Assembly (NCBI GenBank): GCA_964016885.1
Contig: OZ024740.1
Coordinates: 181,412,001-181,476,000 of the forward strand
Source of the DNA: Eledone cirrhosa
Lineage: Eukaryota
DNA: 64,000 nt
Direction: 5' to 3'
Positions 1 through 24,112 of this stretch are shown piece by piece; the first letter of the stretch is position 1, and each line of letters starts with the position of its first letter. A program made the position numbers and the translations under genes. The notes under the pieces were generated by a model. The model was not told the origin of the DNA and made no database searches. It was given only the letters and a program-made list of their open reading frames with translations.

Positions 1-2169
1 TCCTACTCTTATGGCCATGCTGGCAGGATGAATGGGAGAGGAAAGGTTTACTTACCTTCCGGGGTCTTGTGAAGGTCGGGTGGTTCGACCTCCATGGTTT
101 GTGGGGTTTCTTTTGGGAACCCCTTTAATAGTCTTGACGTGGGTTTTACGTTCGGGGTTCCCACATCCCGAGGAAAGCTCTTTCGAATTTCTTTGTATGA
201 AGCGAGCGACATTCGCATCAGAAGCAAATTATCTGGTACGCGAAATGTGCTCGCTTCAAATGTTTCCCCGTCTTTTTCGATGTTTGTGCTTCGTGCTACA
301 TGGGCCATCAATTCCTTGTTGGCCCTTCTGGCAAGCACGAAGTTTTTAATGTTTTGTTGCTCGGGTTTTATTTGTTCGTGTGATTGTGGTGGTGATAGCT
401 TTGTTAGTGTTGTTTCTATTGTGTCTGCGTTTGTTGTGGGTGGGGTGTCTGTAGTTTCTGATGTTTGTGTGTCTATTTGTTCTTGTGTCTGTTTAGCTTG
501 TTTGCGTTTGGGGGATTTTGGTGGTTGTGTTGGTGATGCTGTGGGGAAAATGTTTGTGTGGGTGGTGTGTGTATTTTTTTTTGTGGGGGTGTTTGTGCTT
601 TGTGGATTTCTTTTTTTTTGTGTTTTGTTTTTTGTATTTTGGGGGACTTTGGTTTTCCCTCATCTTCACTGCTGGAGGATGAGGGGTCTGTGGCTGTGAG
701 CGTGTTTGTGTCTGAGTGAGTGTTTATGTTCTTGTTCGTGTGTGTATTTTTGGGGGGGAGGGGGAATGGGAGAGCTTTCCTCGTTTCCCCCCTGGGTGTG
801 CAATTTTGGTGGTTCCATTGTTGACGGTGTTGCTGGTGGTCCTTGTCCCGGCATCGCCAGCAGTGGAATCTTTCGACCCCTTGCGCTTTTCGGCAGTTGA
901 GGGCAGAAGGCTCGCAAGTGTGTCGTTTCCCCACAAAGGAAACAATGCGGCCTTTTGCCCTCAGTCATTATATGCATCACCCTCCCGTTTTGGAGGCGGA
1001 TGTGGTCCGGGATTGCTTTTACGTTTTCGGGTCTGATTTGGAGCAGTATCTCCAGATCAACCCCGGACCAGTCGTCCCTGGCAGTTCTCGTTGCCTCTAC
1101 CGGGACTGTATCCGTTCCTTCCACGATTACGCAACCCAGGAGCCACCACATATCAAGTCCTGGTGGAATCCTGGGAATGCGCACACGTGCTATTCGTTTT
1201 CCCATGTGGGAGGGGTACATTATAACCTTGCTGGTTTTGCAAGGGGTCATTGAATGCTTCACAGCGAGGGCTTCAGACTTGAACAGCACCGAAACGGTGC
1301 CGTATTGCCTGCCCCTCTCTATGAAGTCTGTGTCCTCTCTGATGTATTTCAGTGCGGCTTCTATATCAGCTTGGGCGATTATCGCTGCCCTCTTTGTCTC
1401 TACTGAGATGCATCTGAAATGCACCGTTCTTTTTTCCACTGCCTCAATGGCTTCTGCCGGGACAGTTAAGTTTGCCCAGGTCTGCTCTTGATTTATGATT
1501 TTCCAGGCCTGGGCCAACTTTTCCTCTCTGTTGGTTAAGTCGATGCTGTAGCATGGTCTCCTTTTAGCCGCTGCCACAGCAGCGAAGGTGTTCTTGTTGG
1601 TGTTGTCACTGTTGTTGTTCTTGTTGGTGTTGCTGCTGCTATTGCTGTTGTTGTTCTCCCCTGTGTCGTGGTTACCCTCTGTGCTGTTGGCCTTGTTGGT
1701 GCTGTTGCTGTCGCTACTATTACTCTCTGTGCTGTTCGTTTTGTTGGTGCTCTCGCTATTACCACCTTCTGCGCTGTTCGGCTTGTTGGTGTTGGTGTTG
1801 TCGCTGTTACCACCTTCCGCGCCGCTCGGCCCGTTGGTGCTGGCACTGTCGCTGCTCACATTCGTGCTGGTGGCGCTCCTCGCCTCACCTCTCCTCTCAA
1901 CGCTCAAGTCGCCGTTGCACGACAGCAGACCTGCCTCTAGGGGGCGTGGCTCCTCCATGTTTTTTTGAGAAAAAAATTATTATTTTTTTTCAAAATAAAG
2001 TTCAAATATTTGGGCCAAAAGGCCCAAATATTATGAGTTATTCCTTCACAGGATACAAATTAATGTCTTATAATGCTTCAGCGGTACAAAAAATAAACAA
2101 TTCTCTACAATTAATCCTCAAAAAATTGCTTACTCACGGAGCTTCAAAAAACGTACATCCACTTTCGTC
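1..2169 (-). mobile_element. Tx1/L1-clade non-LTR retrotransposon, family A copy 1 (5' UTR, ORF1 and first 6 codons of ORF2; rest runs off the window)
   Basis: Nearly identical to 5842-8015. ORF2 ATG at 18 (MAIRVG). The 5' end GACGAAAGTGG abuts (AAT)6 at 2170-2187. Confidence 0.93.
666..1958 (-). CDS. ORF1 gag-like nucleic-acid-binding protein, N-terminal 430 aa; true ORF1 probably continues through two homopolymer frameshifts to the stop at 48
   Basis: CCHC knuckle CFLCGETTHLRAFC, TFAAVAA motif, Asn/Ser-rich N-terminus. Position upstream of ORF2. Downstream frames 473-934 and 48-338 resemble the ORF1 C-termini of the other families. Confidence 0.85.
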   Translation of the reverse strand: MEEPRPLEAGLLSCNGDLSVERRGEARSATSTNVSSDSASTNGPSGAEGGNSDNTNTNKPNSAEGGNSESTNKTNSTESNSSDSNSTNKANSTEGNHDTGENNNSNSSSNTNKNNNSDNTNKNTFAAVAAAKRRPCYSIDLTNREEKLAQAWKIINQEQTWANLTVPAEAIEAVEKRTVHFRCISVETKRAAIIAQADIEAALKYIREDTDFIERGRQYGTVSVLFKSEALAVKHSMTPCKTSKVIMYPSHMGKRIARVRIPRIPPGLDMWWLLGCVIVEGTDTVPVEATRTARDDWSGVDLEILLQIRPENVKAIPDHIRLQNGRVMHIMTEGKRPHCFLCGETTHLRAFCPQLPKSARGRKIPLLAMPGQGPPATPSTMEPPKLHTQGGNEESSPIPPPPQKYTHEQEHKHSLRHKHAHSHRPLILQQ

Positions 2170-2187
2170 AATAATAATAATAATAAT
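2170..2187. repeat. (AAT)6 junction/target tract between elements A1 and A2
   Basis: Direct reading. Equivalent tracts at 8016-8042, 14147-14185, 14366-14374 and from 19505. Confidence 0.95.
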
Positions 2188-2439
2188 GATTTCATTTATT
2201 GGCCACAAGGGCCGACATATAGGGGACAACACAATAGACAGGGACAGTGGGGGTTTACATAGAGATCGAGTAAGTATAAATAACAAAAAACAAAATAACA
2301 ATAAAAATACAACAATGAAAGTTCCCCAATAAGAGGGATCACCACCCAGGGTTGACTCAAGCACCCCACCAGTCCTGAGCCACCCGACGCTCCTAGGGCA
2401 CCCGGGAAGGGCACCCCTCTCCTTCTCGAATTCACCAGC

Positions 2440-5400
2440 CTACAGGCGCATGATCAGAGTAGGCCCACTCACGCGGGCCATTCTCGCCACATTCACCCAC
2501 CTTTCAGTAAATGTACTGGGGGGCAGCACTTCTCTCTCCACCCTCACCTTCCTTTCCAAGTGAAACTTGAAGAAGTTGATGAGGGATTGGCCGAAGAGAA
2601 AAGTGTCTGTCTTCAGTCCTTTCAACCTGGTCCACCATGCAACCTCTTTCGCTACTGCCACCAGGCAGAGGAAAATTGCCTGCCCTTCCTGACCAAAAGA
2701 AGGCGGCGGGTCAATCTTCACTATGGACTCGGACGATAGCCGGATCCGTTCTACACGCGACAATAGCTGTTCGACATAACCCCACAAGTCAGCAATGCAC
2801 GGACACTGGACGAGTGCGTGCAGAACGGTTTCGTCGCTCTGCGCGCATCTCGGGCAGGTTCGTCTGACAGCACTTCCGTGCCTGTAGAGTTTATCCCGAA
2901 CCGGCAGCGCCCCCCGGTAGCACTGCCAAGCGAGGGATTTCTGGAAGTTATCCATCGTCCCCGGCTCGAAAGTCCTCCGGAACATACTGGTCAGTTCTAC
3001 TTCGTTGACGCCCAGAGCCTCTCCTAGTACGTCATCGCACTTGCCCTCCACTAATCCTCTATAGAAATCTTGAGTGGAAGTTCCACTGACCGCATTGCCC
3101 ACCTTGCAGAGTGCAGTGAGCGCCTGGCAACATTCCAGATGCCAGTCGCCCAGTCTCGGTCTCTTCTTGACCCAGGACTGCAGCTCAGTCAAAGAGATGA
3201 GCTGCGGAAAGGCCCGTCTAACAAACGGCGACCACACCTGTTCACCGTTTAGGCAAAATATCTGGAGATGTCGCAGCCTCAGCGCATGTCTGCGCATCAT
3301 TAGCCACGGCATGCCCAGCCCTCCACGAAGAGGGTGCTGGCAGCAGATGGACCGCCTCACCAACGGGACCCGTCCCCTCCACAAAAATTTGAAAAGGAGC
3401 CGTTCCAAATTGGCGAGGCGTGGACGGGGGCAAGGCATGACGGTCAGGCGGTAGTAGATGACGGACGCGATGTACGCGTTCGCCACCTCCGCCCGCCCTT
3501 TCAGTGATAGCTTTCTCTCAGCCCATTTCTGGGTGAGGTTGGCTATCCTGCTCGTCACCTCGTCCCAATTCTTATCCACCTGGAGGTCTGGTCCGAACCA
3601 AACCCCGAGCAACTTTACCGGTCCGTCTGTCCAGCGCCCAACGACGCTGTTGGACGGCATGGACTTGCCTCTCCAGGTGCCGAGCTGCAAGCCCACCGAC
3701 TTTTCCGGGTTAAGTTTTGCTCCCGTCAACCTTTCATATTCCTCCAAATGGGTGCGGATCACCTCGATTTCCGAGGTGTCCGACACCATCACGGTGATGT
3801 CGTCCGCATAAGCGGACGCAGCCTTTCTACGTCCCGGTTCGAGCGGGATGCCCTGCAACAACTCCAGCTTCCGCAGTAGAGGCTCAAGAGTCAATACGTA
3901 CAGAAGTGAGGAGAGAGGGCACCCTTGACGGACCGATCGAGAGATCTGAAACGGTTCCGAGAGGTGGCCATTAACTTTGACCACCGAGCAGATGCCGCTG
4001 TACATTGCAGCGATCCAGCTTCTGAAGACGGGGCCGAAGCCAGCCGCCTCGAGGACAGCCTCCAAGTACCGATGGTCGACCCTATCGAATGCTTTCGATT
4101 GATCTAAATTGATCAGAGCCCCACCGAAGCCAGGTTTGCACCCAACCCTCTCTATGATGTATCGCATGAGGTGGAGGTTGTCGTGTATGGACCTGGTCGG
4201 GATTGCGCAAGTTTGCGCCTCCCCAACCAAATCTTTGACGACAAGCGCCAACCTTTTCGCTAACACCTTGGCCAAAATCTTAAACTCTGTGTTGAGCAGG
4301 GTTATGGGCCTGAAATTATCTAGTGTGTCCCTCTTGTTCTCGTCTTTCCTTATCAGCGTCACTACGCCACGGCTCACAGAACTGGGAATGCTCCCGTTCT
4401 GCTGCCAGTTGCAGTAGAGCGCTTCGAGGAGATCGGAGAACAAGTCTGGCATATTTACGTAAAGCTCGTAGGGCAGACCATCCAAACCGGGTGACTTGCG
4501 ACTCGAGCAGCCGACAAGGGCGTCCTGAATTTCGACTGATGTTATCGGCTCTTCGCAGCGCTCAGCGTCGGCCGTCGAGAGGCGTGGCAAGCCGTCGAGG
4601 TAGGGACTGAAGTCCGCCGCCGTCTCCGACTCACCCATCCTCCCGAACAATCGAGCAAAGTGCTGGCGAAAGGCCTCACACATCTGCTTGGAATCGCTCA
4701 GTTCGTGTCCATCTCGATCCGTCAAAGACCGAATTGTGGTTTTGTTTCCACGCTGCGTCTCTGCAAAGCGAGCCCATCGGGCAGCTTTGGTTCCCTCGTT
4801 CCTCAGAGCACGCGCCTTAGCTCTGACAATGCAACCTTCGTGTTTCGCATTGAAGAAATGGTCTAGTGCCATTCTCGCCGCTAGCACGTCTGTTGCAATG
4901 CCACTACAAATAGCCTCGTCTAACTTAGCTATCAGCCCCTCCTCCTTTCTATTTTTCTCTATTGCTACTTCTTTGCTAAATCCTATCGAGGTTGCTCTAA
5001 TCTCTCTTTTGAGTGCCCCCCACCACCTGTTGTTGACAACCCCCCCTGTCAACTTTTGCTTAACTAAGTTGTTGACCCGGTCCCTGTAAGCTTTACGTGC
5101 CGGAAACGACATGTTTAGCTTCCAGTAGCTAGGTCCTAACCTACGTGTCTTATCTAGGTCGACCATACAGATCACAAGCTTGTGATCTGAATAGGCAACC
5201 GTTTTAAAATGTGGACATCCTACACTATTTCTATCTCTTTTCCTAATGAAAATCCTATCTATGTACGATCTAGATGACCCTATGCGATTGGTCCAGGTCC
5301 ATACTGGCGCATTAGGGAAATCTAGTCGGTACCTGTCAGACAGTTGAAACTGGCTGATCAGGTACTTGAGGCTTTTGCACCCCCCGCTCCTATCAGATAC

Positions 5401-5859
5401 TCCCACACAATCCCAGCGTGCTTCTAAGATGCCATTCCAATCCCCTATTAACAGTAAAGGGCGAGACGTAAGCAGAAAGTTTTCCAGGCGCCTAAAGAAG
5501 TCCGGCCGACCGGCCCCAGTAGGGGCGTAGACGGCCACCAGTCTAAAGGCACCACCTTCGCTATTGCTCACGTCCAGGACCACCAACTTTCCGTCAGGAT
5601 CCCGGAAGATTGACCTTACCTCGAGATCCAGACATTTCCTAAACAGCACAGCCACTCCACCTCCCATTCCCGGCCGACTAACAGATGCAAAGATCTGATA
5701 ATCGTCGAAAATCGGCGCCAGTGCGCGTGTGTCGGAAATTCTGGTCTCGCTGATGGCAATTACATCCATTCCTAGTGACCTGAGGTCGTTGAGCAAGTGA
5801 CCTTGCTTCCAGGGCGACCCCAGGCCACGAACATTTAAACTTCCTACTCTTATGGCCAT
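2440..5859 (-). CDS. ORF2 pol protein: AP-like endonuclease + reverse transcriptase + C-terminal CCHC finger (Tx1-like), intact 1139 aa
   Basis: APE motifs SLNVRGL, SETR, GDWN, YIDRIF, SDH. RT motifs KSPGLDG, FRPITLLN, LDQSKAFDRV, RQGCPLS, YADD. C-terminal CPRC..ETVLHALVQC. Confidence 0.97.
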   Translation of the reverse strand: MAIRVGSLNVRGLGSPWKQGHLLNDLRSLGMDVIAISETRISDTRALAPIFDDYQIFASVSRPGMGGGVAVLFRKCLDLEVRSIFRDPDGKLVVLDVSNSEGGAFRLVAVYAPTGAGRPDFFRRLENFLLTSRPLLLIGDWNGILEARWDCVGVSDRSGGCKSLKYLISQFQLSDRYRLDFPNAPVWTWTNRIGSSRSYIDRIFIRKRDRNSVGCPHFKTVAYSDHKLVICMVDLDKTRRLGPSYWKLNMSFPARKAYRDRVNNLVKQKLTGGVVNNRWWGALKREIRATSIGFSKEVAIEKNRKEEGLIAKLDEAICSGIATDVLAARMALDHFFNAKHEGCIVRAKARALRNEGTKAARWARFAETQRGNKTTIRSLTDRDGHELSDSKQMCEAFRQHFARLFGRMGESETAADFSPYLDGLPRLSTADAERCEEPITSVEIQDALVGCSSRKSPGLDGLPYELYVNMPDLFSDLLEALYCNWQQNGSIPSSVSRGVVTLIRKDENKRDTLDNFRPITLLNTEFKILAKVLAKRLALVVKDLVGEAQTCAIPTRSIHDNLHLMRYIIERVGCKPGFGGALINLDQSKAFDRVDHRYLEAVLEAAGFGPVFRSWIAAMYSGICSVVKVNGHLSEPFQISRSVRQGCPLSSLLYVLTLEPLLRKLELLQGIPLEPGRRKAASAYADDITVMVSDTSEIEVIRTHLEEYERLTGAKLNPEKSVGLQLGTWRGKSMPSNSVVGRWTDGPVKLLGVWFGPDLQVDKNWDEVTSRIANLTQKWAERKLSLKGRAEVANAYIASVIYYRLTVMPCPRPRLANLERLLFKFLWRGRVPLVRRSICCQHPLRGGLGMPWLMMRRHALRLRHLQIFCLNGEQVWSPFVRRAFPQLISLTELQSWVKKRPRLGDWHLECCQALTALCKVGNAVSGTSTQDFYRGLVEGKCDDVLGEALGVNEVELTSMFRRTFEPGTMDNFQKSLAWQCYRGALPVRDKLYRHGSAVRRTCPRCAQSDETVLHALVQCPCIADLWGYVEQLLSRVERIRLSSESIVKIDPPPSFGQEGQAIFLCLVAVAKEVAWWTRLKGLKTDTFLFGQSLINFFKFHLERKVRVEREVLPPSTFTERWVNVARMARVSGPTLIMRL

Positions 5860-5888
5860 GCTGGCAGGATGAATGGGAGAGGAAAGGT

Positions 5889-7804
5889 TTACTTACCTTC
5901 TGGGGTCTTGTGAAGGTCGGGTGGTTCGACCTCCATGGTTTGTGGGGTTTCTTTTGGGAACCCCTTTAATAGTCTTGAAGTGGGTTTTACGTTAGGGGTT
6001 CCCACATCCCGAGGAAAGCTCTTTCGAATTTCTATGTATGAAGCGAGCGACATTCGCATCAGAAGCAAATTATCTGGTACGCGAAATGTGCTCGCTTCAA
6101 ATGTTTCCCCCTCTTTTTCGATGTTTGTGCTTCGTGTTCCATGGGCCATCAATTCCTTGTTGGCCCTTCTGGCAAGCACGAAGTTTTTAATGTTTTGTTG
6201 CTCGGGTTTTATTTGTTCGTGTGATTGTGGTGGTGATAGCTTTGTTAGTGTTGTTTCTATTGTGTCTGCGTTTGTTGTGGGTGGGGTGTCTGTAGTTTCT
6301 GATGTTTGTGTGTCTATTTGTTCTTGTGTCTGTTTAGCTTGTTTGCGTTTGGGGGATTTTGGTGGTTGTGTTGGTGATGCTGTGGGGAAAATGTTTGTGT
6401 GGGTGGTGTGTGTATTTTTTTTTGTGGGGGTGTTTGTGCTTTGTGGATTTCTTTTTTTTTTTGTGTTTTGTTTTTTGTATTTTGGGGGACTTTGGTTTTC
6501 CCTCATCTTCACTGCTGGAGGATGAGGGGTCTGTGGCTGTGAGCGTGTTTGTGTCTGAGTGAGTGTTTATGTTCTTGCTCGTGTGTGTATTTTTTTTGGG
6601 GGGGAGGAGGAATGGGAGAGCTTTCCTCGTTTCCCCCCTGGGTGTGCAATTTTGATGGTTCCATTGTTGACGGTGTTGCTGGTGGTCCTTGTCCCAGCGT
6701 CGCCAGCAGTGGAATCTTTCGACCCCTTGCGCTTTTCGGCAGTTGAGGGCAGAAGGCTCGCAAGTGTGTCGTTTCCCCACAAAGGAAACAATGCGGCCTT
6801 TTGCCCTCAGTCATTATATGCAACACCCTCCCGTTTTGGAGGCGGATGTGGTCTGGGATTGCTTTTACGTTTTCGGGTTTGATTTGGAGAAGTATCTCCA
6901 GATCAACTCCGGACCAGTCGTCCCTGGCAGTTCTCGTTGCCTCTACCGGGACTGTATCCGTTCCTTCCACGATTACGCAACCCAGGAGCCACCACATATC
7001 AAGTCCTGGTGGAATCCTGGGAATGGGCACACGTGCTATTCGTTTTCCCATGTGGGAGGGGTACATTATGACCTTGCTGGTTTTGCAAGGGGTCATTGAA
7101 TGCTTCACAGCGAGGGCTTCAGACTTGAACAGCACCGAAACGGTGCCGTATTGCCAGCCCCTCTCTATGAAGTCTGTGTCCTCTCTGATGTATTTCAGTG
7201 CGGCTTCTATATCAGCTTGGGCGATTATCGCTGCCCTCTTTGTCTCTACTGAGATGCATCTGAAATGCACCGTTCTTTTTTCCACTGCCTCAATGGCTTC
7301 TGCCGGGACAGTTAAGTTTGCCCAGGTCTGCTCTTGATTTATGATTTTCCAGGCTTGGGCCAACTTTTCCTCTCTGTTGGTTAAGTCGATGCTCTAGCAT
7401 GGTCTCCTTTTAGCCGCTGCCACAGCAGCGAAGGTGTTCTTGTTGGTGTTGTCACTGTTGTTGTTCTTGTTGGTGTTGCTGCTGCTATTGCTGTTGTTGT
7501 TCTCCCCTGTGTCGTGGTTACCCTCTGTGCTGTTGGCCTTGTTGGTGCTGTTGCTGTCGCTACTATTACCCTCTGTGCTGTTCGTTTTGTTGGTGTTCTC
7601 GCTATTACCACCTTCTGCGCTGTTCGGCTTGTTGGTGTTGATGTTGTCGCTGTTACCACCTTCCGCACCGCTCGGCCCGTTGGTGCGGGCACTGTCGCTG
7701 CTCACACTCGTGCTGGTGGCGCTTCTCGCCCCACCTCTCCTCTCAACGCCCATGTCGCCGTCGCACGACAGCAGACCCGCCTCTAGGGGGCGTGGCTCCG
7801 CCAT
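5889..7804 (-). pseudogene. ORF1 of family A copy 2, disrupted
   Basis: TAC>TAG nonsense change at 7394-7396 relative to copy 1, plus frameshifts in homopolymers at ~6590 and ~6452-6462. CCHC knuckle retained. Confidence 0.88.
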
Positions 7805-8287
7805 GTTTTTTTGAGAAAAAAAATTATTATTTTTCCAAAATAAAGTTCAAATATTTGGGCCAAAAGGCCCAAATATTATGAGTTATTCCTTCACAGGATA
7901 CAAATGAATGTCTTATAATGCTTCAGCGGTACAAAAAAATAAACAATTCTCCACAATTAATCCTCAAAAAATTGCTTCCTCACGGAGCTTCAAAAAACGT
8001 ACATCCACTTTCGTCAATAATAATAATAATAATAATAATAATGTTTTCTTTATTAACCACAAGGGTTTACATAAAGTAGACATTAAGGACAGTACAGGAT
8101 AATACGGGACGGTACAAATGGGCATTTCTGCGTGTAAAAAAAACAGAGGAGGAAAATAAAATAACAAAGAAAAATTCCCCAATAGGGGGGAGACTTCCGA
8201 GGGACATTTGTGGAGAAAGCCCATTAAAAGACCACAGTGGCCCTGACCACCAGGGCAAGTGCCCTTTCCCAATTTTCCACCTTTAAT

Positions 8288-11200
8288 TTACAGACACATA
8301 CTCAGAGAAGGCCCATTCATTCGGGCCATACTTGTTTCTCTCACCCATCTTTCAACAAAATGCTGGGAAGAGAGCACTTCCCTCTCTACCCTGATTTTCC
8401 TTTTCACATGAAATTTGAAAAAGTTAATCAGGGTATCACCGAAGAGGTAAGTGCTCGTCTTCAGCCCTTTCAAACGTGTCCACCATACTATCTATTTCGC
8501 CATGGCCACCAGACAGATAAAAACTGCCTGCCCTTCCCGGCTAAAGGAAGAGTGCGGGACAATCCTCACGAAGGACTCAGCTGATAGCTGGATCCGTCCT
8601 ACACGTGACAGCAGGTGTTCGACATAAACCCACAAGTCAGCAATGCTTGGACACTGGACGAGTGCGTGCAGGACGGTTTCGTCGCCCTGTGCGCATCTCG
8701 GACATGCCCGGCTGACGGCACCTCCATGCCTGTAAAGTTTATCCCGAACTGGCAAAGCTCCTCGGTTTGCACTGCCAGGCCAGGGATTTCTGGAAGTTGT
8801 CCATAGGCCCTGGCCCGAAAGTCCTTCCGAAGAGATTGGCTAGTTGATTTTCGTCGACGCCTAGAGTTTCTCCAAGTACGTCGTCGCTCTTCCCCTCCAC
8901 TAATCCCCTATAGAACGCCAAGGTGGCGATTCCACCGATCACATTGCCCGATTGGTCGAGGGCTGTGAGCGCCTGAAGATATTCCAGTCTCCAAGCGCTC
9001 CCTCTCGGTCTTCGCTTGACCCAGGACTGCAGCTCCGTCAAGGAGACGAGCTGGGGAAAAACGTGTCTAGCAAACGGCGACCACACCTGATCACCGTCGA
9101 GGAAGAGGTGGAGATGTCGTAGCCTGAGCGCGTGTCTGCGCATCATCAGCCACGGCATGCCCAGCCCTCAACGTAGAGGGTGTTGACAGCAGATGGACCG
9201 CCTGACCATCGGAGCGCGTCCCTTCCACAAGAAGCGAAAGAGCAAACGCTCCAGCGCAGTCAGGCGAGGCTTAGGACAAGGTACGACAGTCAGGCGGTAG
9301 CAGATATACGGACGCGATGTACGCGTTAGCCACCTCCAATCGACCTTTCACGGATAGCTTCCTCTCGGCCCATTTCTGGGTGAGAGAAGCCACCCTGCTC
9401 GTCACCTCGTCCAAGTTTTTGTCCGTCTGGAGGTCTGGACCGAACCAGACCCCTAGCAATTTAACCGGTCCGTCCGTCCAGCGCCCGACGACGCTGTTGG
9501 ACGGCATGGACCTGCCTCTCCAGGTGCCGAGCTGCAGGCCCACTGACTTTTCCTGGTTGATCATTGCTCCTGTCACCGCTTCGTATTCTCTTAGTGTAGT
9601 GCCGATCGCCTCGATGTTTTTGGCGTTCGACACCACTACGGTGACATCGTCGGCATATGCTGACACGGATCTTCCGCATCCTAGTTCACGCGGGACCCCC
9701 CTCAACGTCTCCAGTTTGTGCAGTAATGGCTCGAAAGTCAATACGTACAATAGGGACGAGAGGGGACATCCTTGGCGGACCGAGCGCATGATGTTGAACG
9801 GTTCCGAAAGGTGACCGTTCACTCTCACTACAGAGCAGATGTTGCTGTGAATGGCAGCGATCCACCCTCTGAAGACGGGCCCAAAGCCAGCCGCCCTCAG
9901 GACTGCCGCTAGGTAACGATGGTCGACCCTATCGAAGGCTTTCGACTGATCTAAATTGATCAAAGACCCACCCGTGCCAGGTTCCCTAGCTACCCTCTCT
10001 ACGATGTATCGCATGAGGTGGAGGTTGTCGTGGATGGATCTGTCGGGAATGGCGCATGTCTGTGCCTCTCCCACCAGACCACCAACGACAAGCGCCAACC
10101 TCTTTGCTAGCACCTTGGCCAAAATCTTGAACTCTGTGTTTAGCAGAGTTATGGGCCTAAAATTATCTATGTTATCCCCCTTGTTCGGATCCTTTCTCAG
10201 CAGCGCCACCGCTCCTCGGTTCTCAGAGCTGGGAATTCTCGCGTTCTGTTGCCAGTTGCAGTAGACGTCCGCCAAGAGGCCTCCGAATAAGTTTGGCATT
10301 TGTAGGTAAAGTTCACAGGGCAGACCATCCAAACCAGGCGATTTACCCCTTGTGCAACTAGTCATTGCATCCCGTACTTCAGCGGTTGTTATCGGCTTTT
10401 CGCAACACTCCGCCTCAGTGGCCGAAAGCCGCGGCAGTCCGTCGAGGTGGACAATAAAGTCCATCCCTCGATCCGGCCCGCCACTGCCCCCGAACAGTTG
10501 AGCGAAGTGTCGCTGAAAAGCTTCACACATTTTCCCGGGATCGAGTAGCATGCGCCCGTCGTGGTCCACCAAAGACAGGATCGTGGCTTTGTTGCCACGA
10601 CGCGCCTCCGCCACTCGGGCCCATTGAACGGCTTTCGTCCCCTCGTGTCTGAGAGCACGCACCCTAGCTCTGACACCGCAGCCTTCGTGCTTTGCATTGA
10701 AGAATTGGTCAAGGGCCAATTTCGCCGCAAGTACGTCGGTCGCGATGCCTTTGCTAAGCGCCTCATCTAATTTTCTAACTAATTCTCCCTCTGCTCTATT
10801 TTTCTCTATTGCTAAAGCCTTACTAAACCTAACGGACTCTATTCTAATTGCTCTTTTCAGAGCAAACCACCACTTGTTGTTGACGATGGCCCCCGTCAAC
10901 GCCCGCTTAACTAGTTCGCTAATCCGGTCTCTGTAGGCCTTGCGCGCTGGTAAGGACGCGTTTAGCTTCCAGTAGCCGGGTCCTCGTCTATGAAGCCTAT
11001 CTAAGTCAAGCACACAGATCACGAATTTGTGGTCCGTGTAGCTGACTATCTTGAATTGTGGACAGCCTATGCTAGACCTATCTATTTCCCTACAAAATAC
11101 TCTATCTAGATATGATCTGGATGACCCTATACGATTTGTCCAAGTCCACATTGGTACATTCGGGAAATCCATTCGGTACCTGTCAGACAGTTCAAAACGT

Positions 11201-11709
11201 CTGAGCATGTTGGTGAGACTCTTGCACCCTCCTTCCCTATCCACTAATCCCACACAATCCCAGCGTGCATCTAAGATCCCGTTCCAGTCGCCCACTAACA
11301 CTAAAGAGCGGGACGTTCCAAGAAAGGTCTCCAGACGCCGGAAGAAATCAGGCCGCCCTGCTCCTGTCGGGGCATAGACGGCCACTAACCTGAAAGCTTG
11401 CCCGTCTCCGCTGGTTACGTCCAGCACCACCAACTTACCTTCTGGGTCCAGGAAGATGGCCCGTATGGCAAGATCCAAACCTCTCCGAAAAAGCACAGCA
11501 ACTCCTCCCCCCGATCCCGGACGGCTGGGAGATGCGTACACATCGTAGCCGCCGAAGATCGGTGCGAAAGCCTGTGCTTCGGAGATTCTGGTCTCGTTGA
11601 TGGCCACTACCTCTATGTTTAGTGACCTGAGGTCGTTGAGCAGGTGGCCCTGCTTCCATGACGACCCCAAGCCACGCGCATTTATGCTGCCTATTCTGAG
11701 TGAGGTCAT
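8288..11709 (-). pseudogene. ORF2 (APE-RT-CCHC) of family B; open for 812 aa, then frameshifted
   Basis: ORF 9271-11709 has GDWN, TDH, QGCPLS and YADD. Fragments 8739-9158, 8492-8755 and 8288-8473 match the C-terminus of the family A ORF2. Confidence 0.92.
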
Positions 11710-11744
11710 GTTTAAAATAGAGTGGAAAAGATGGGAAAGACCAC

Positions 11745-13938
11745 TTACCTTACTTCTCGTAGGGGATGGACGGTTTTTCCATCCTTTTCACTGCTTGTGG
11801 CCTCCTCAGGAAGGATGTCCTTATAAATCCTCCTGGAGAGTGCTTGTCGGAAGTCTCCGATGTGTTTGGGGAATTTTTTTTTTTAATTTTTTTTAGTGTC
11901 ACGTACGTATTCTGTGTGATGCGAGTGATTTGTATGTGTGGAGGTGGTGTGAATTTTGGGGTTGTTGTGTAGTCTTTTTCTGTGATGCTGGTGTTGTGTT
12001 GGATGTAGTGTAATAATTGCTTGTTGTTCAAATTTAATTGTTTCTACTTTAGGCATAAGGCCAGCAATTACCCAGTGCATTACTGGTACTTTATTTTATC
12101 GACCCCGTAAGGATGAAAGGCAAAGTCAACCTCGGCGGGATTTGAACTCAGATCATAAAGGGACGTAACTATGCTGGAAAGCATGGCGTCAAAACCTCTA
12201 CCGATACTGCCAATCCACCGCTTGTTGTTCAAATTTAATGCTGTGTAGTGTGTATCGTTTTGGTTGTTTTGTTTTGTTTGCGTTTGTTGTGGGTTTGTTT
12301 CTGTTTCGCATTTTGGTGACTTTTGTGGTGTAGGTGATGGTGGTGTTGGGGTTAATGATGGTGATGGTGTTGGTGTTTGGGTTGCTGGTGTGGATGGTGG
12401 CATATCTGTCCTAACTTTTTTGTTTCTTAGTTTATTTGTTTCCCTCTGTATTTTGTTTTTGGAGGGGGAAGGAAGAGAATTTTTTCTTTTTTGGTTTCTT
12501 TTTTTTTTCCGGATATCGTTTCCCACTCCTCGTCGTCACAATCTGTCTCCAGTTGTGATACGCCGGGGAGTGGAAAATCCTCCACAGGCGTTAGTTTTGG
12601 TTGTGGCGTGGTGGATGGTGTAGGCGCTGGTGCTAGTTCTGAAGCGTTGGGTGGTGGTGGTGTTGGTTTTGCTGGTGGTGGTGGTGGTGTTGGTTTTGCT
12701 ACTGTTGCTGGGGTTGTTGCTGTTATAGTTGTTTCTGTTGTTGCTGCTACAGTTGTTGCTGCCATCTCTGCTACTGGTGGTGTTGATGGTTGTGTCACTG
12801 GGGTGGGTAGGAGAGGTGGCCTCAACCTTTTAGCCTGAGGGCAGAAAGCCCTTAGGTGGTTTCCTTCACCACAAACGACACACCTAGGTCTTCTGCCCTC
12901 AACAATTACCGTGAGGTGGCTGCCGTCAGTGAGGTCTATTACCTCTGGGATCTCCTCAATGCTTTTTTGGTCCGCTTGGATCAGGAGCTCCATCCCAGAT
13001 CCGGACCAGTTCTCCTGCTTTTCTTTTGCTATTGCTATTAATTTTGTGTTGGCTTCGATGCCGGCGAGGACGGCCGCTATTAGCCAGGGAATTTCGATGG
13101 CCGGTGGAACGTGGGTCACCCTGATCTTTACGAGTCTCTGGCCACAATAGCTTGGGACGAGTGTGATGTCGTCACTTCTTAATGGGGCCATGGAGTGTTC
13201 TCTAGCCTCCTCTGGTGTTTCAAAGAACACGTCCACGGTTCCATACTTTTGCCCACGTCTGATGTTGGTTTTTCTTGCCCACACATGTCCCAAAGCTTTT
13301 TGGATTTGGGACTCGGATGCCCGTTTCACTCGGCGCGATTTTACATTTATTGTTCGATACGACACGGTGCATAGGCGCCGATGCTCCATTTTATTAGGTG
13401 TGGGGGGGGGGCTGACCCTGTACCCATCTTTCTTTACCATTTGTTTGGCATTCTCTAAATCCTCCTGAGTTACCGTAAATGCTTCGAACTGCTTTGCTAC
13501 TCTGGCGAAACTGAGGGTGGTTTTTATAATGTCACTGTTGTTGTTGTTGCTATCGTTATTTGTGTTAATATTAATTTTAGTTTCAGTTGTGGTGGTGGTG
13601 ACGTCAGTCGTCTTTGGTGGGGAAGAGTCCATTTTACTTGATTTCATTTCGACATCACGAGTTAATTTATTTTTTTCTTCTTTTGTTTCTGTTGTTGCGG
13701 TGGTGGTGGGGGTGGGGGTTGTCGCGGTCGTGGTGGTGGTGGTGGAGGCTTTAACACCTGCAGTCATTGGTAATGGCGGGAAATGAATGTCTGCCTGAGA
13801 CAAATTTAAAATATTGCTACTGCTTATATTTGTTGTAGTGTTGGCAAACGTAGTCACATTTACAATGGTGGTGTCGGTGTGAGGAGTTAATTTGTGAGGA
13901 AGGCTTTCAGTTGCTTGGTGCAGAGGTGAATTAGCCAT
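11745..13938 (-). pseudogene. ORF1 of family B (starts MANSPL), interrupted by a poly-A frameshift and a SINE
   Basis: CVVCGEGNHLRAFC knuckle, LSFARVA motif, GQKYGTVDV similar to GRQYGTVSV of family A. Confidence 0.87.
12039..12219 (-). mobile_element. tRNA-derived SINE (family S1) with 20-bp target-site duplication
   Basis: B-box-like GAGTTCAAATCC and central GCCTTTCATCCTTACGGGGTCGATAAAATAAAGTACCAG. TSD GCTTGTTGTTCAAATTTAAT at 12019-12038 and 12220-12239. At least 5 copies in the window. Confidence 0.9.
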
Positions 13939-14185
13939 TTTTTTCAAAGAAATTTTTTGATAATAATAAAAGTTTAAATTTTGGGCACAAGGCCCCAATC
14001 TTTTTGGGTGTCCTTTTCGGAAAACAATGTATGTGCGCTTATATATGGTTAACAATAAAAATTTTCCATAAATGGCAATTTTTAACAAACGGAAATAACA
14101 AACCTTTGCGGAGCTCACGATGATACGATTTACTACGTAGGTCGCCAATAATAATAATAATAATAATAATAATATTAATAATAAT

Positions 14186-14361
14186 TGTTTCTACTTTAGG
14201 CACAAGGCCAGCAAATATCCAGTAGATTACTGGTAATTTATTTTATCGACGCCGTAAGGATGAAAGGCAAAGTTAACCTCGACGGGATTTGAACTCAGAC
14301 TGTAAAGAGACGTAACTGTGCTAGAAAGCATGGCGTCCGACCCGCTACCGATACTGCCAAT
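14186..14361 (-). mobile_element. SINE S1 copy inside the AAT junction between elements B and C
   Basis: Colinear with 12039-12219. AAT tracts on both sides. Confidence 0.88.
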
Positions 14362-14616
14362 TGCGAATAATAATACTTTCTTTATTAACCACAAGGGTTT
14401 ACATAAAGTAGACATTAAGGACAGTACAGGACAATACAGGACGTTACAAATAGGCATTTCAGCGTGTAAAAAACAAAAACAGAGGGTGTAATAGAAATAA
14501 CAATGAAAAATTCGCCAATAGGGGAGACTTCCGAGGGACATTTGTGGAGAGAGGCCATTAAAAGGCCACAGTGACCCTGACCACCAGAGCAAGTGCCCTC
14601 TCCCAGTTTTCCACCT

Positions 14617-17169
14617 TTAATTTACAGACACACTCAGATTAGGCCCATTCACTCGGGCCATTCTTGCTTCTCTCACCCATCTTTCAACAAAATGCTGGGA
14701 AGAGAGCACTTCCCTCTCTACCCTGATTTTCCTTTTCAAATGAAATTTGAAAAAGTTAATCAGGGCATCACCGATGAGGTAAGTGCTCGTCTTCAGCCCT
14801 TTCAAACGTGTCCACCATACTATCTCTATCGCCATGGCCACCAGACAGATAACAACTGCCTGCCCTTCCCGGCTAAAGGAAGAGGGCGGGAAAATCCTCA
14901 CGAAGGACTCAACTGATATCCGGATCCATCCTACACGCGACAGCAGGTGTTCGACATAAACACACAAGTCAGCAATTCTCGGACACTGGACGAGTGCGTG
15001 CAGGACGGCTTCGTCACCCTGCGAGCATCTCGGACATGCCCGGGTAACGGCACCTCCATGCCTGTAGAGTTTATCCCGAACTGGAAGTTGTCCATAGGCC
15101 TCAGCCCGAAAGTTCTTCCGAAGAGATTGGCTAGTTGATTTTCGTCGAGGCTTAGAGCTTCCTCAAGTACGTCGTCGCTCTTCCCCTCCACTAATCCTCT
15201 ATAGAACAACGAGGTGGAGCTTCCACCGATCACATTGCCCGATTGGTCGAGTGCTGTGAGCGCCTGAAGTCATTCCAATCTCCAAGCGCTCCCTCTCGGT
15301 CTTCGCTTGACCCAGGACTGCAGCTGCGTCAAGAAAACGAGCTGGGGAAAGACGCATCTAGCAAACGGCGACCACATGTGATCACCGTCGAGGAAGAGGT
15401 GGAGATGTAGCCTGAGCGTGTGTCTGCGCATCATCAGCCACGGCATTCCCAGCCCTCCACGTAGCGGGTGTTGACAACAGATGGACCGCATGACCATCGG
15501 AGCGCATCCCTTCCACAAAAAGCGAAAGAGCAAACGCTCCAGCGCAGTCAGGCGGGGCTTAGGACAAGGTACGACGGACAGAGGGTAGCAGATGACGGAC
15601 GTGATGTACGCGTTAGCAACCCCCGCTCGACCCTCAGGGATAGTATCCTCTCAGCCCATTTCTGGGTGAGAGAAGCCACCCGGCTCGTCACCTCGTCCCA
15701 GTTTTTGTCCGTCTGGAGGTCCGGACCGAAACAGATCCCTAGCAATTTAACCGGTCCGTCCGTCCAGCGTCCGACAACGCTATTGGACGGCATGGACCTG
15801 CCTCCCCAGGTGCCGAGCTGCAGGCCCACTGACTTTTCCTGGTTGATCATTGCTCCTGTCACCGCTTCGTATTCTCTTAGTGTAGTGCCGATCGCCTCGG
15901 TGTGTTTGGCGTTCGACACCACTACGGTGACAACGTCCGCATATGCTGACACGGATCTTCCGCATCCTAGTTCGCGCGGGACGCCCCTCAGCGTCTCCAG
16001 TTTGTGCAGTAATGTCTCGAGAGTCAATACGTACAAGAGGGACGAGAGGGGACATCCATGGCGGACCGAGCGCATAATGTTGAACGGTTGCGAAAGGTGA
16101 ACGTTCACTCTCACCACAGAGCAGATGTCGCTGTGCATGGCAGCGATCCAGCCTCTGAAGACGCGCCCAAAGCCAGCCGCCCTCAGGACTGGCGCTAGGT
16201 AACGAAGGTAGACCCTATCGAAAGCTTTCAACTAATCTAAATTGCTCATGGACTCACCGGTACCAGGTTCCCTTGCTACCCTCTCTACGATGTATCGCAT
16301 GAGGTGGAGGTTGTCGTTGATGGATCTGTCGGGAATGACGCATGTCTGCGCCTCTCCCACCAGACCACCAACGACAAGCGCCAACCTCTTTGGTAGCACC
16401 TTGGCCAAAATCTTGAACTCTGTGTTTAGCAGGGTTATGGGCCTGAAATTATCTATGTTATTCCCCTTGTTCGGATCCTTTCGATGCAGCGCCACCGCTT
16501 CTCGAATAACATAGCTGGGAATTCTCCAATTCTGTTGCCAGTTGCAGTAGACGTCCGCCAAGAGGCCTCCGAACAAGTCTGGTATTTGTACGTAAAGTTC
16601 ATAAGGCAGGCCATACAAACCAGGCGATATATCCCTTGTGCGCCAATCATTGCCTCCCGTACTTCAGCGACTGTTATCGGCTTTTCGCAACACTCCGCCT
16701 CAATGGCCGAGAGCCGCGGCACTCCGTCGATGTAGATACTAAAGTTCATCCCTCGATCCGGCCCACCGATGCCCCCGAACAGCTGTGCATATTGTCGCTG
16801 AAAAGCTTCACACACTTGCCCGGGATCGAGTAGCATGCGCCCGTCGTGGTCCACCAAAACCAGATCGTGGCCTTGTTGCCACGACGCGCCCACGCCACTT
16901 GGGCCCATTGAACGGCTTCGTCCACTCGTGTCTGAGAGCATGCACCCTAGCTCTGACATTGCAGCCTTCGTGCTTTGCATTGAAGAATATGTCAAGGGCC
17001 AGTTTCGCCGCAAGTACGTCGGTCGCGATGCCTTTGCTAAGGAGATTCTGGTCTCGCTGATGGCCACTACGTCTATGTTTAGTGACTTGAGGTTGTTGAG
17101 CAGGTGGCTCTGCTTCCATGACGACCCCAAGCCACGCGCAGTTATGCTGCCCATTCTGAATGGGGTCAT
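14617..17169 (-). pseudogene. ORF2 of family C, multiple lesions and a ~0.82-kb internal deletion of most of the endonuclease
   Basis: RT fragments FRPITLLNTEFKILAK and HGCPLSSLLY. Junction at 17040/17041 joins sequences that lie at ~10757 and ~11581 in family B. Confidence 0.9.
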
Positions 17170-17203
17170 GTTGAAATGGAGGGGAAAAGATGGGAAAGAC
17201 CAC

Positions 17204-19283
17204 TTACCTTACTTTTTGTAGAGGAAGGATGGTTTCTCCATCACTTTTCACTTGATCGTCTGGTGAATGGACCGTTGAATCTTCCCTTCGGCTGGTCGTC
17301 GGCTCTTCTATGAGTATATCCGAATATACTCTCCGGTTGAGAGTCGCTCCTAGATCTCTGAAATCACCAACTGTGTTGGGGAATTTCGTTTTAACGTTTA
17401 TGTATTGTTTCTGTGCTATTCTTACTAGTCTTATGTTCGTTGGTGTTTTGATTGGTGCTGGTATTATGTAGTCGTGCTGTGAAATGTCTGGGTGTTCAAT
17501 TATGTAAGTCATTAGTTTCTTGTTGTGTGTATTTATTGCCATGCATTTGTTTTTCTGGGGCTGGGGTGTGGTTCTGGTATTTTATCTTCGTTGTTGCTGG
17601 GTGTGTGTGTTTTGTTGTTGTGTTTCCGATGTTAGTACTTGTGGTGGTGGTGGTGTTGAAGGTGTTGTTGTTGTTGGCCGTGGGGTTGTCGCTGGTGGTG
17701 ATGGTGGTGCTAGTGTGGGTTGTGATGTTGTTGGTGGTGTTGCTGCTGTAAGGGTCTTTGCAGTAGCCTTTACCCTTTTTTCATTTCTTTCCTCCCTTTT
17801 CGAAGGCGACGATGCGGTGCTTCTGCGTTTGTGCCTTCTTACGACCTTTTGCCATCCCTCTCCCACCTCACACTCCATGTCTGATTCTGTGATGTCGGGG
17901 AGGGGTACCAGCTCCACTCTTTCACTTGTTGTTGGTGATGTTTGTAATGGAGTCTCTGTTGCAGCTGCAGTTGGTATTACTGATGTTGTTGTTAATACTT
18001 CCACTACTGCTGCTGTTCTTGATTTCCGTGGCGTGGGTATGGGTTCCACGGACCTATCGTTCCTGGTTGCCGCTTGTCCTGTTGCTGGTAGCAGTGGAGC
18101 CGGTTTCGGAACGATGGGGGTTTTCTCCTTTCTCAGGGTCTTCTCATTGCTGAAGACCCTGAGGTGAGTCTTCGATCCACAGCGAAAGCATTTCGGGCGT
18201 TTGCCCTCAACACTTATGGGCAGTTGAGTGCCGTCATCGAAGTCTATCACATCCGGGATAGCTTCGATGCACTCCCGGTTGCCTTGGATTAACATCTTAA
18301 TGGAGGTGCCGACCCAATCTTCTCTTGCTTTTTTCTGTACTTGCAGTACACGTGGGTCAGTTTGACCATCACAATTTTTTGCCCGCAGTAGGAGGGCACC
18401 AACACCATTTCCTCGCTCCTTAGGGTCACTAAGGATTGATCCTTTGCCTCCTAGGGTGTGGCAAAAAGCACGTCTATGGTGACATATTTCTTGCCTCGGG
18501 TGATATGCGTTTTTCGCTGCCACACAGAACCTAAGGCATTTTGTATTTGAGCCTCTGTGGCTCCTTCAGCCCTACGGGATTTTGTGCTTACTGTACGGTA
18601 CGTGACCGTATAGTGCTGTTGGGTTTCGAAAAATGTTTCGGCTGCCTTGCTCGGTGTCCGGTTTTCGTCACCATCTTCTTTGCTTCCTGTAATTCCTCAT
18701 TTGTTATAAGGATGGTTTCCAGGTTCTTTGCGATACCTGCAAACGAGATTGGTTTTTCTTTCTTGTTGTTGTTGTTGTTGTTGTTGTCGTCAGAGCTGCT
18801 GTTACTTTTGTTGTTGCTGCTGGTACTACGACTGCCGCCACCGCTGTTGCTGTGGTTGTTGTCGTTGTTGCTGCAGCTGCCGTTGTTGTTGCCGCTGCTG
18901 CTGGTGGTGTTGTTTATGCTGCTGCTGATGCTGTTGCGGCTGCTACTATTATTTTCCTTGTCACTGTTGATGCTGTTATTACGGCTGCTACTGCTATTAT
19001 TCATGACGTCAGACGAATGAAATGGCTTTCCGTATTTACCGCACACATTATTCGTCGTTGTCGTCGTCGGGGGGAAATGTTCCACAGTATGCACGTTCTA
19101 TTGGTGAAAGCTACCAGAAACTATTTTTTTCTTTTTCTTTAATGGCGTCGCTTGCGAAAGACGCGACACCACATTTAGAGAAGGGAGGGAGAGAGACAAT
19201 CTTCTCTCTGATGTAATGACGATTGAGGAAGAAGAAGACGGAAAGAGCGGGAGTGACTTATGAAAATTCTTTTTTGTAGCCAT
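17204..19283 (-). pseudogene. ORF1 of family C, disrupted
   Basis: EGKRPKCFRCGSKTHLR knuckle remnant and ISFAGIA motif. In-frame stop at 17582-17584 precedes the C-terminal domain 17204-17542. Confidence 0.85.
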
Positions 19284-19639
19284 GTTTTTTTTTTTGACGG
19301 TTTAAAATGTATATTGGGCACAACACCCCCAATAAGCGGTTATTTAACACCGACGGGCCAAATAACCTGCAGAAAGACCCCTCTCACGAGGAGGAGGGTG
19401 TCATTATCTACAATTTGGTTCAAGTTTTAAACAATTTACGATTGTTATAGCGGTTACAAATTACTATACCTTACAGAGCCGAGCCTCCGTCAACCATGGC
19501 ATTCAATAATAATAACAATAATAATAATAATACTGATACTACTATTACTACTACATGTGCTGTTTCTGGTGCCGCTGCTGTTGCTACTACTGCTGCTGCT
19601 GTTGCAGTTATTCTGCTACTATTACAACTAATAATAATG

Positions 19640-20075
19640 TCAACAATTTGCGAGGACTCAAAAGGGCCTATACAGAGCTTTGCTGACCAATATTCTACAC
19701 AAAACGCAGACGCCTATTGTCGAATAAACTGTTCTTGTTGCATGACAATGCACGCCCACACATAGCTGGCTAGACCGTTGAAACCATTAACCAATTGCGT
19801 TTTGAGCTGCTGGGACACCCTGCCTAGAACCCATTTCTTGCATCTTCCAACATCATCTCTTTCGTCCACTCAAAGATGCTTCACTATGTCGTTGATTCCC
19901 TACAGATGTTGAAGTGCAGGAAGCGCTGCATAAATGATTGAGCATTCATCTGAAAACCTTCTTGGGGGGAATACTCAAACCTTCTGGATCGTTGAACCAA
20001 GTATATGAACAGGAAGGAGATAATGAAGAAAAATTACGTACATGTTTAAGCCCCGCTTTTGTGTAAATAAATTGA
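19640..20075 (+). pseudogene. Mariner/Tc1 transposase C-terminal fragment
   Basis: Manual translation LLHDNARPHIAG*TVETINQLRFELLGHPA*NPFLASS...FPTDVEVQEALHK matches the mariner HDNARPH / HPPYSPDLAPSD region. Confidence 0.78.
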
Positions 20076-20136: not shown

Positions 20137-20478
20137 ATCTGAAAACCCGTGTTGAAACAGTAATTGTTACACTCTAGGAGGGTCGTGCTGCCAATAAAAA
20201 CACGCACCGGTTAGTTTTCACATCAATTTATCATACATTTCTAGCTGGTTGCTTGGTTCGGTAATCGGATGGTTGTTTATATATTGTCAAAGCTCTTTCG
20301 TTACACATTTTGTGACCTCCTCAGTGACTGGGTTTTTATTTTGTCACCCTTCTTTGTTCTGTCCTACACCAACTCCTTGTATGTAGAATAGAACAAAGGA
20401 GAGACACAAAATAAGAACCCAGTCACTGAGGTCACATAATGTGTGGCAAAAGAGGTTTAACAATATATAAACAACCCA
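20137..20478. mobile_element. Penelope-like pseudo-LTR fragment with inverted duplication and a degenerate hammerhead (20286-20328, -)
   Basis: 20270-20348 is inverted at ~20403-20477. Similar to 23757-24112. Motif GTCA CTGAGGA ..stem.. GAAAGAGCTT TGAC. Confidence 0.65.
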
Positions 20479-23619: not shown

Positions 23620-23756
23620 CGAAGGACGTGTGGTAAGGAAACAGATGGACCATAAGGCACCAGAGTACTCAATGCTTAGGGTAGTAGAGTGGGTAATAGG
23701 AAAATGTATGTATATATATATATTTCGTTTCTGAATTTGTTTAGCAAGATTCTTTA

Positions 23757-24112
23757 TCTGAAAACGTGTGTTGAAACCGATATTGCTATATTTTGGGAGG
23801 GTCATGTTGCCAATAAGAAACACATTCTCCCACTGCGTTCACTCCAATTTATTATGAATTAAATTATAAATTTAAAAAAAATTATAAATTTCCGGTTGGT
23901 TGGTTGAAAAGAATCCCCGGTCAGTCACTGATGAGGTCACATAATGTGTGACGAAAGAACGTTGACAATATATGAACAACCGTCCGGTTGTGGAACCAAC
24001 CAACCAACCGGAAATTTATAAATGTTTTTATATTTATAAGTTAATTTATAATAAATTGGAGTGAAACTCTGGTGCGTGTGGCAACATGACCCTCCCAAAG
24101 TATAACAATATA
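23757..24112 (+). mobile_element. Penelope-like pseudo-LTR fragment with inverted ends and a degenerate hammerhead (23924-23966)
   Basis: GGGAGGGTCATGTTGCC is inverted as GGCAACATGACCCTCCC. Motif CTGATGA GGTCACATAATGTGTGAC GAAA. Confidence 0.7.

Follow-up and report, generated by a model that had tools for sequence, protein, structure and literature searches.

A 64,000-nucleotide stretch of Eledone cirrhosa contig OZ024740.1 (the window) carries a head-to-tail stack of four long interspersed elements (LINEs) of the L1/Tx1 group and one short interspersed element (SINE), linked by runs of the trinucleotide ATT. The stack, annotated on the minus strand over window positions 1-19531, is real and forms one array whose left end lies beyond the window. 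Separate insertions of a Tx1-like lineage with a preference for (ATT)n targets probably built it, although this explanation is held with reserve.

All features of the array lie on the minus strand and are described leftwards from the host DNA. A run of (ATT)5 GTT (ATT)3 (19505..19531), which grades into a degenerate trinucleotide stretch to ~19640, lies upstream of the oldest LINE, C (14375..19504). C is followed by its (ATT)3 tail (14366..14374), a 180-bp tRNA-type SINE (14186..14365), a joint of (ATT)3 AAT (ATT)9 (14147..14185) that is the tail of this SINE and precedes the 5' end of the next LINE, the full-length LINE B (8043..14146), an (ATT)9 run (8016..8042) that joins the 3' end of B to the 5' end of A2, the full-length LINE A2 itself (5828 bp; 2188..8015), an (ATT)6 run (2170..2187) that likewise joins A2 to the 5' end of A1, and the youngest copy, A1 (1..2169), of which the 5' untranslated region (UTR), open reading frame 1 (ORF1), and the first ORF2 codons are seen before it leaves the window at the left edge. 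A second tRNA-type SINE lies within B (12039..12220). The four LINEs in one orientation had been recognized in an earlier reading made without database searches (the sequence-only reading), and all four were placed on the minus strand here; both SINEs had been overlooked, and with one of them standing between C and B, B follows the tail of a SINE and not the tail of C. The full 5' ends described in that reading were found for A and B; C has no second copy for comparison, and the position of its 5' end was taken from the 5' UTR layout.

The joints follow one pattern, as had also been described earlier. All three visible LINE 3' ends consist of CCCTTGTGG-NN-AATAAA, 6-7 nt, and (ATT)n, with no poly(A); the spacers after AATAAA are TGAAATC, GAAAAC, and GAAAGT (7, 6, and 6 nt), and the ATT units are (ATT)6, (ATT)9, and (ATT)3. 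At base resolution, ATT runs immediately precede the 5' ends of the four LINEs and of the SINE between C and B, and nine units stand directly upstream of three of the four LINEs, a weak hint at a fixed nick position. In the other 44,360 bases of the window, on either strand, there are no runs of at least (ATT)5 and four runs of at least (ATT)3. The joints comprise five base-precise junctions in one orientation, no LINE is nested in another LINE, each copy has its own mutations, and a search of the next 44 kb with 120 homologue queries found no reverse transcriptase (RT)-like remains outside the array. These features argue against elements with mere ATT tails whose random insertions accumulated in a tolerant region, and against mis-assembly of repeats, an explanation considered very improbable even though no long read or contig among those listed spans the stretch. 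It draws on the SINE as well: the 3' loose ends of this abundant element are AAT-rich in 700 and 913 contigs, and because it spreads ATT tails without run specificity, ATT tails alone do not prove targeting.

Coding content and classification

The ORF2 of A2 (5859-2440) is open over 1139 amino acids, as the sequence-only reading had noted, and encodes an apurinic/apyrimidinic endonuclease (APE) domain, an RT, and a C-terminal zinc finger (Pfam matches Exo_endo_phos, 1.6e-14; RVT_1, 1.3e-29; zf-RVT, 1.1e-8). The A2 ORF1, which starts at 7804, is however interrupted by a TAG at 7394 that is present in A2 only; the A1 ORF1 starts with an ATG at 1958 and has 430 open codons, and neither copy reads through to the stop beside ORF2. 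In B, ORF1 is open (~504 amino acids) and ORF2 contains two one-base insertions and two stops. C has deletions of 813, 41, and 10 bp, and its ORF2 contains five one-base gaps and two stops. A CX2CX4HX4C knuckle in ORF1, which is typical of Tx1-like elements, is complete in A1, A2, and B and broken in C, where the last Cys is missing; ORF1 gave no Pfam match past the cut-off. Three separate families had been proposed from the sequence alone. A is ~76% identical to both B and C. The ORF2 sequences of B and C show 91% identity, and the differences between these two elements lie chiefly in the 5' UTR and ORF1.

Among solved structures, the closest to A2 ORF2 was human L1 ORF2p (1e-56), followed by R2 proteins at 3e-22 or weaker, L1 and R2 being the only full proteins among the matches. 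The APE catalytic motifs of A2 align with those of human L1. The endonuclease hairpin loop TNRIGSSRS is identical in A2 and B despite an overall ORF2 identity of 72%; its length equals that in human L1 and is two shorter than that in Tx1L (PMC1950540), and this says nothing on the target. The only named close match was P0217, a protein of cuttlefish with 53% identity across the RT region, and a search of the ESM Atlas returned unnamed RT clusters only. The match to P0217 makes a cephalopod host likely, and the SINE points to an octopus as the probable one. In a quick tree of 52 rows, computed without bootstrap and with no named Tx1 reference among the rows, the window families, P0217, and the LINE families of a metagenome bin, G001, described below, share a branch with a Shimodaira-Hasegawa-like approximate likelihood ratio (SH-aLRT) value of 99. 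These comparisons support assignment of the elements to the APE-RT LINEs of the L1/Tx1 group. Within that group the lineage is likely Tx1-like, as judged by the ORF1 knuckle, the tree rows containing no Tx1L, Keno, Kibi, or Koshi.

In A, B, and C, the stop codon that shortly precedes the start of ORF2 shares bases with the motif AAGGTAAGT, a perfect match to a splice donor (window 5889-5897, 11746-11754, and the region of 17202-17210); the motif also occurs in eight of the nine printed G001 loci (at 7980-7995 in locus L010) and is absent in L035. It may bear on ORF2 expression. No ribozyme or small nuclear RNA (snRNA) was seen at 5' ends or joints: window 1-21000 gave no Rfam match that came near a gathering score, and three G001 loci gave none at E values up to 1.

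Order of insertion

The gradient of decay from C through B and A2 to A1, first proposed from the sequence alone, is borne out by counts of own changes, ORF damage, and read-majority alleles. With A2 as the outgroup, 138 own substitutions were counted in C versus 62 in B over 2539 columns (binomial p 8e-8). Their distribution over the codon positions is 53/44/41 in C, an even spread as expected of decay after insertion, and 19/13/30 in B. Private changes per 180 positions number nine in the SINE between C and B and five in the SINE inside B. A1 and A2 share the same start base and differ at 39 of 2167 aligned sites (1.8%; 98.2% identical), which agrees with the near identity noted earlier. The comparison with public reads covered 40 of 2645 variant rows, 12 of which fall in the part shared by A1 and A2; A1 has the read-majority allele and A2 alone differs at 8 of these 12 sites, and A1 equals A2 at the other 4. 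Since the reads were aligned to A2, sites private to A1 cannot appear among the variants. Five high-depth contigs of run X15 show 22 differences from A2 in pieces that hold 24 differences between A1 and A2; the majority of the differences between the two copies is therefore likely on the A2 side. These data suggest that A1 is near the population type. Thirteen of the 39 differences lie within ~230 bp at the ORF1 start (window 7570-7800), and at seven of them the coding strand has A in A1 but G in A2.

The 8 sites at which only A2 departs from the reads, the TAG at 7394 found in A2 only, and the unequal ATT joints (nine versus six units) also tell against a tandem duplication or dimer transcript as the source of the A1-A2 pair, and perhaps of more copies leftward, with only C, the SINE, B, and one A copy as separate insertions. 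Such an origin is improbable; it would fit the 98.2% identity and the common start base, the 4 of the 12 sites at which both A1 and A2 differ from some or all reads, and the frequent occurrence of near-identical arrays in the sister clade found in G001.

The order C, SINE, B, A2, A1 thus runs roughly from old to young. Its weakest step is that between B and A2: the ORF2 of A2 is open, which suggests that part of the divergence of A2 is inherited and does not reflect decay, and the step is blurred. Random choice of junctions gives the order of the four LINEs in 4.2% of simulations, or in 8.4% when either direction is counted, for a single array that was noticed for its order and whose left end is unseen. 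The sequence-only reading had derived a chronological growth on the 3' side from regeneration of the target. The age gradient was measured, as described above; every insertion, however, leaves ATT on both sides, so target regeneration alone does not force an age order, and related arrays lean to the opposite polarity. An age order would be expected if insertion each time left the longer and purer portion of the run 3', so that this portion became the favored next target, a bias that would be drawn from this one array. One-way growth is plausible.

ATT runs as probable target and the shared 3' hairpin

Independent evidence of ATT targeting comes from C alone, the only LINE whose 5' flank is not the tail of another element: it sits in an ATT run with no CTTGT hairpin or AATAAA end upstream. 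Given the ATT background, the placement of this flank in an ATT run by chance is unlikely, although it is a single event. For a target-specific Tx1 family, PMC4494074 uses the criterion that the target be found in >20% of the flanks of all copies; in the window, ATT 5' flanks were counted for four of four LINEs, of which one is independent. The ATT-specific APE lineage of the sequence-only reading therefore stands as far as APE-RT LINE copies abut ATT runs, and strict specificity rests on the one independent flank of C. Four public read runs covered positions 2140-14420, with depth in all 30 bins in each, and the ATT joints fell outside this coverage; runs with a word share of <0.2 were left out. 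The best-matching run may derive from the source of the window itself. Two contigs (X2 record 19 and X1 record 8) stop 31-32 letters past the aligned part at the A and B 5' ends, where long AAT runs would fit, and were not counted as evidence. A set of 24,216 loose ends at 10706 in run X23 was set aside as a likely restriction-library artifact; read starts pile up at GCATGC, and positions 10703-10706 read AATT.

In the proposed mechanism, the element RNA would be cut ~15-20 nt after AAUAAA and would thus end in a few AUU units. ORF2 would bind the 3' hairpin described below, the APE domain would nick the AAT strand, and the AUU end would pair with the nicked DNA and prime copying. With copying primed in this way, no poly(A) would be copied and each copy would end in a new ATT run.

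The hairpin, a CT(T/C/A)GT loop closed by 3-5 pairs, stands just before the 3' end in A2, B, C, the SINE, and all G001 families. It reads GGCC-CTTGT-GGCC in A2 and AACC-CTTGT-GGTT in B, each followed by AATAAA, and GGC-CTTGT-GCC in the tail of the SINE between C and B, with ATTATTATT on both sides of the SINE. Stem positions 2-4 change on both sides, as in the stems GGCC/GGCC, AACC/GGTT, and AAGGC/GCCTT. There are 132 CTTGT words in the window, and the five with at least four standard pairs are all element features (three LINE ends, one SINE tail, and the B 5' UTR). The SINE tail is of the G001 type over 11 nt, and its spacer and ATT end resemble those of the window LINEs. The predicted fold contains the 3' hairpin for A2, B, C, and L010 and lacks it for the two SINE 3' ends that were folded, and whole-end fold z-scores are weak except that of L010 (-2.6); support for the hairpin thus comes from the paired stem changes and not from fold energy. 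In a comparison made within the clade, the shared end suggests stringent 3' recognition and a partner of the SINE among the LINEs of this clade. Hairpins resembling the 3' one also occur in the 5' UTRs of A, B, and C (window 2005-2032, 13983-13999, and 19319-19341); that of B is followed by a spacer and degenerate ATT resembling the SINE tail, and the region of that of A folds at a z-score of -5.5.

MetaSINEs consist of a tRNA-derived head followed by a 66-bp Meta domain. A/B-box-like motifs are visible in the window SINEs, and their core is putatively Meta-like. The SINE inside B has a 20-bp target duplication that starts with ATT at a site that is not a microsatellite, and contigs without this SINE (joints ~12018 to 12220) were seen in runs X1, X2, and X15. 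The partners of MetaSINEs were stated to be unknown in 2016 (PMC4824008).

Several observations weigh against a strict preference for ATT runs. The 5' flanks of three of the four LINEs are tails of upstream elements and so are not independent of a model in which ATT is only a tail. The SINE shares the 3' hairpin and ATT tail, yet only two of its five window copies abut at least (ATT)3, and no AAT period is seen at the 5' loose ends of the SINE in run X23 (11,903 reads; agreement, 0.46); if the window LINEs mobilize the SINE, their nick is looser than strict microsatellite targeting. A sister clade in G001 also counts here. A scan of prokaryote genomes gave 45 loci, 41 of them from this one metagenome bin, which is titled uncultured Arenicella; its array contigs have flanks rich in AT and in microsatellites and are likely animal DNA within a bacterial bin. 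Loci L004-L042, L045, L046, and L049-L060 of G001 are head-to-tail LINE arrays of up to ~13 copies, comprising intact 6.4- to 6.9-kb Tx1-like units of at least eight families without poly(A), whose full-length copies are 40-42% identical to A2 ORF2. On 16 rebuilt contigs, 66 3' ends were found, with up to 12 in one contig and the same orientation within each. None of the 66 is followed by (ATT)3, and the joints have no microsatellite; stacking in this clade thus needs none. Each family has its own short sequence after AATAAA. A 3' host flank is visible in four G001 arrays, and in three of these divergence is highest in the 3'-most copy (58 of the 66 ends aligned), a polarity opposite to that of the window, which edge copies escaping homogenization would mimic. 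A metagenome scan for further relatives gave 3 distant loci among 42 candidates, a viral scan gave 0 of 81, and the shared 3'-end pattern had no match in the genome contigs and viral contigs searched.

From the G001 arrays comes the alternative that new copies are drawn, throughout the clade, to a resident 3' end, either the hairpin-AATAAA end itself or an adjoining duplicated target, with ATT serving only as a tail or short priming match. The 66 uniformly oriented ends without (ATT)3 fit it. In G001 contig 17, a 16-bp duplication begins immediately behind the AATAAA of the first copy, and a different family (76-80% identical) follows this copy directly; head types are interleaved in contigs 6, 14, and 18; the window and G001 families share a branch in the quick tree; and, in the window, a 3' end with the hairpin precedes three of the four LINEs and the SINE. 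C, however, lies in an ATT run without such an end upstream, and most neighboring G001 copies are >99% identical, so that array length there may come from unequal crossing-over. Self-stacking of this kind is considered unlikely as the origin of the window array, and separate insertion into preferred (ATT)n targets is retained as the probable one. A wider reading, possible but tentative, would place both kinds of array in a cephalopod Tx1-like clade that recognizes its RNA by the CT(T/C/A)GT hairpin, lacks poly(A), and starts copying at DNA that resembles the final 10-20 bases of the element. The clade would hence reinsert beside its own ends, giving ATT-linked, one-way, age-ordered multifamily stacks here and, in the sister lineage, arrays of a dozen intact copies with no microsatellite, and it would be the partner of an abundant Meta-type SINE that seeds ATT targets genome-wide.

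Further features were seen in the relatives. In L059 (G001 contig 17, element sense), the 5' region of the first copy holds a piece like its own family's post-AATAAA sequence; HeT-A carries 5' tags, to which this piece was likened. The start of the 16-bp duplication in contig 17 falls inside a motif that resembles a reversed tRNA B box. At L043, two U1 snRNA matches (3036-3199 and 9961-10137) flank a distant relative (28% identity) whose 5' end stands directly behind the first match and which is possibly a U1-cluster-targeting or U1-headed Tx1 element.

Beside the array, window 19687-19773 contains a short frame, LLHDNARPH, which we take to be a mariner transposase motif, and is likely a decayed DNA transposon. 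A long imperfect inverted repeat at 20271-20476 scores against several microRNA models below their cut-offs and is likely an element like a miniature inverted-repeat transposable element, with partial copies near 23735-24019.

Related systems and significance

Tx1 families are known that target (TC)n (Kibi), (TTC)n (Koshi), and, in crocodilians, (TTCC)n/(TTTC)n (PMC4494074 and PMC3812793). Like them, the window elements are APE-RT LINEs of the L1/Tx1 group with a microsatellite on both sides. Unlike in those families, the repeat is ATT and not pyrimidine-rich, and several families and a SINE share one site; neither (TC)n nor (TTC)n occurs at the window joints, all of which are (ATT)n.

Dong elements have a restriction-like endonuclease and one ORF, with no APE. 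The window elements, with two ORFs and an N-terminal APE bearing catalytic motifs, are not members of Dong, and a shared TAA/ATT target would be convergent. The two are alike in the repeat class (TAA/ATT) and in their presence in mollusks. PMC3812793 describes Dong (R4 clade) as TAA-specific and lists it among APE types, and Dong-R4 is abundant in Octopus vulgaris (PMC13282606, Table 1).

Tandem insertions of SINEU-3, mobilized by Tx1-Mar, sandwich a target duplication (PMC4494074) and resemble the window array in that sequential insertion at a regenerated site yields head-to-tail copies; there, unlike in the window, a Mariner element serves as the target, and short SINEs with poly(A) form the units. 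LINE arrays are known from Drosophila telomeres (HeT-A, TART, and TAHRE) and from Chlorella (Zepp) (PMC10088271). The Drosophila arrays likewise contain several head-to-tail families; HeT-A/TART arrays point poly(A) tails to the centromere, whereas the window joints are ATT without poly(A). Zepp inserts into itself, and the Drosophila telomere arrays are ordered by age. In telomeric arrays of the HeT-A/TART type, 3' ends point towards anchored host DNA and growth takes place at the distal 5' end; the window array is not of this type, since its host DNA flanks the 5' end and its 5'-most copy is the oldest.

In stringent-type SINE/LINE pairs, among them those of monocot and Chlamydomonas L1 (PMC3747384), both partners carry a 3' stem-loop in which the loop is conserved and the stem varies, as do the SINE and LINEs here, although the stretch shared in the window is only ~11-13 nt plus a similar spacer and ATT end. 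No animal Tx1-like LINE was found as a SINE partner in the available portions of PMC3747384 and PMC4824008. For Octopus vulgaris, recent activity of L1-Tx1 families is reported, with targets unmentioned in the main text (PMC13282606), and the available portions of PMC8967140 and PMC4758252 held nothing further on targets. The literature search retrieved neither an ATT-targeting Tx1 element nor cephalopod LINE arrays, within a scope that did not extend to Repbase or to Fig. 3 and the supplements of PMC4494074, which may already record an ATT family. Microsatellite targeting and tandem insertion are already known, and the window elements likely represent an ATT-preferring Tx1-like lineage whose targeting is of the Kibi/Koshi kind.

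If the proposed targeting is true, (ATT)n would be added to the targets of APE-type Tx1-like LINEs, in convergence with the TAA-specific Dong, and the open ORF2 of A2 makes nicking and priming directly testable. If growth was indeed one-way, the stack would date the succession of families at a single locus. Through the shared 3' hairpin, a very abundant SINE gains a candidate partner LINE, and the G001 arrays show how a LINE can become a 6- to 7-kb satellite of intact copies.

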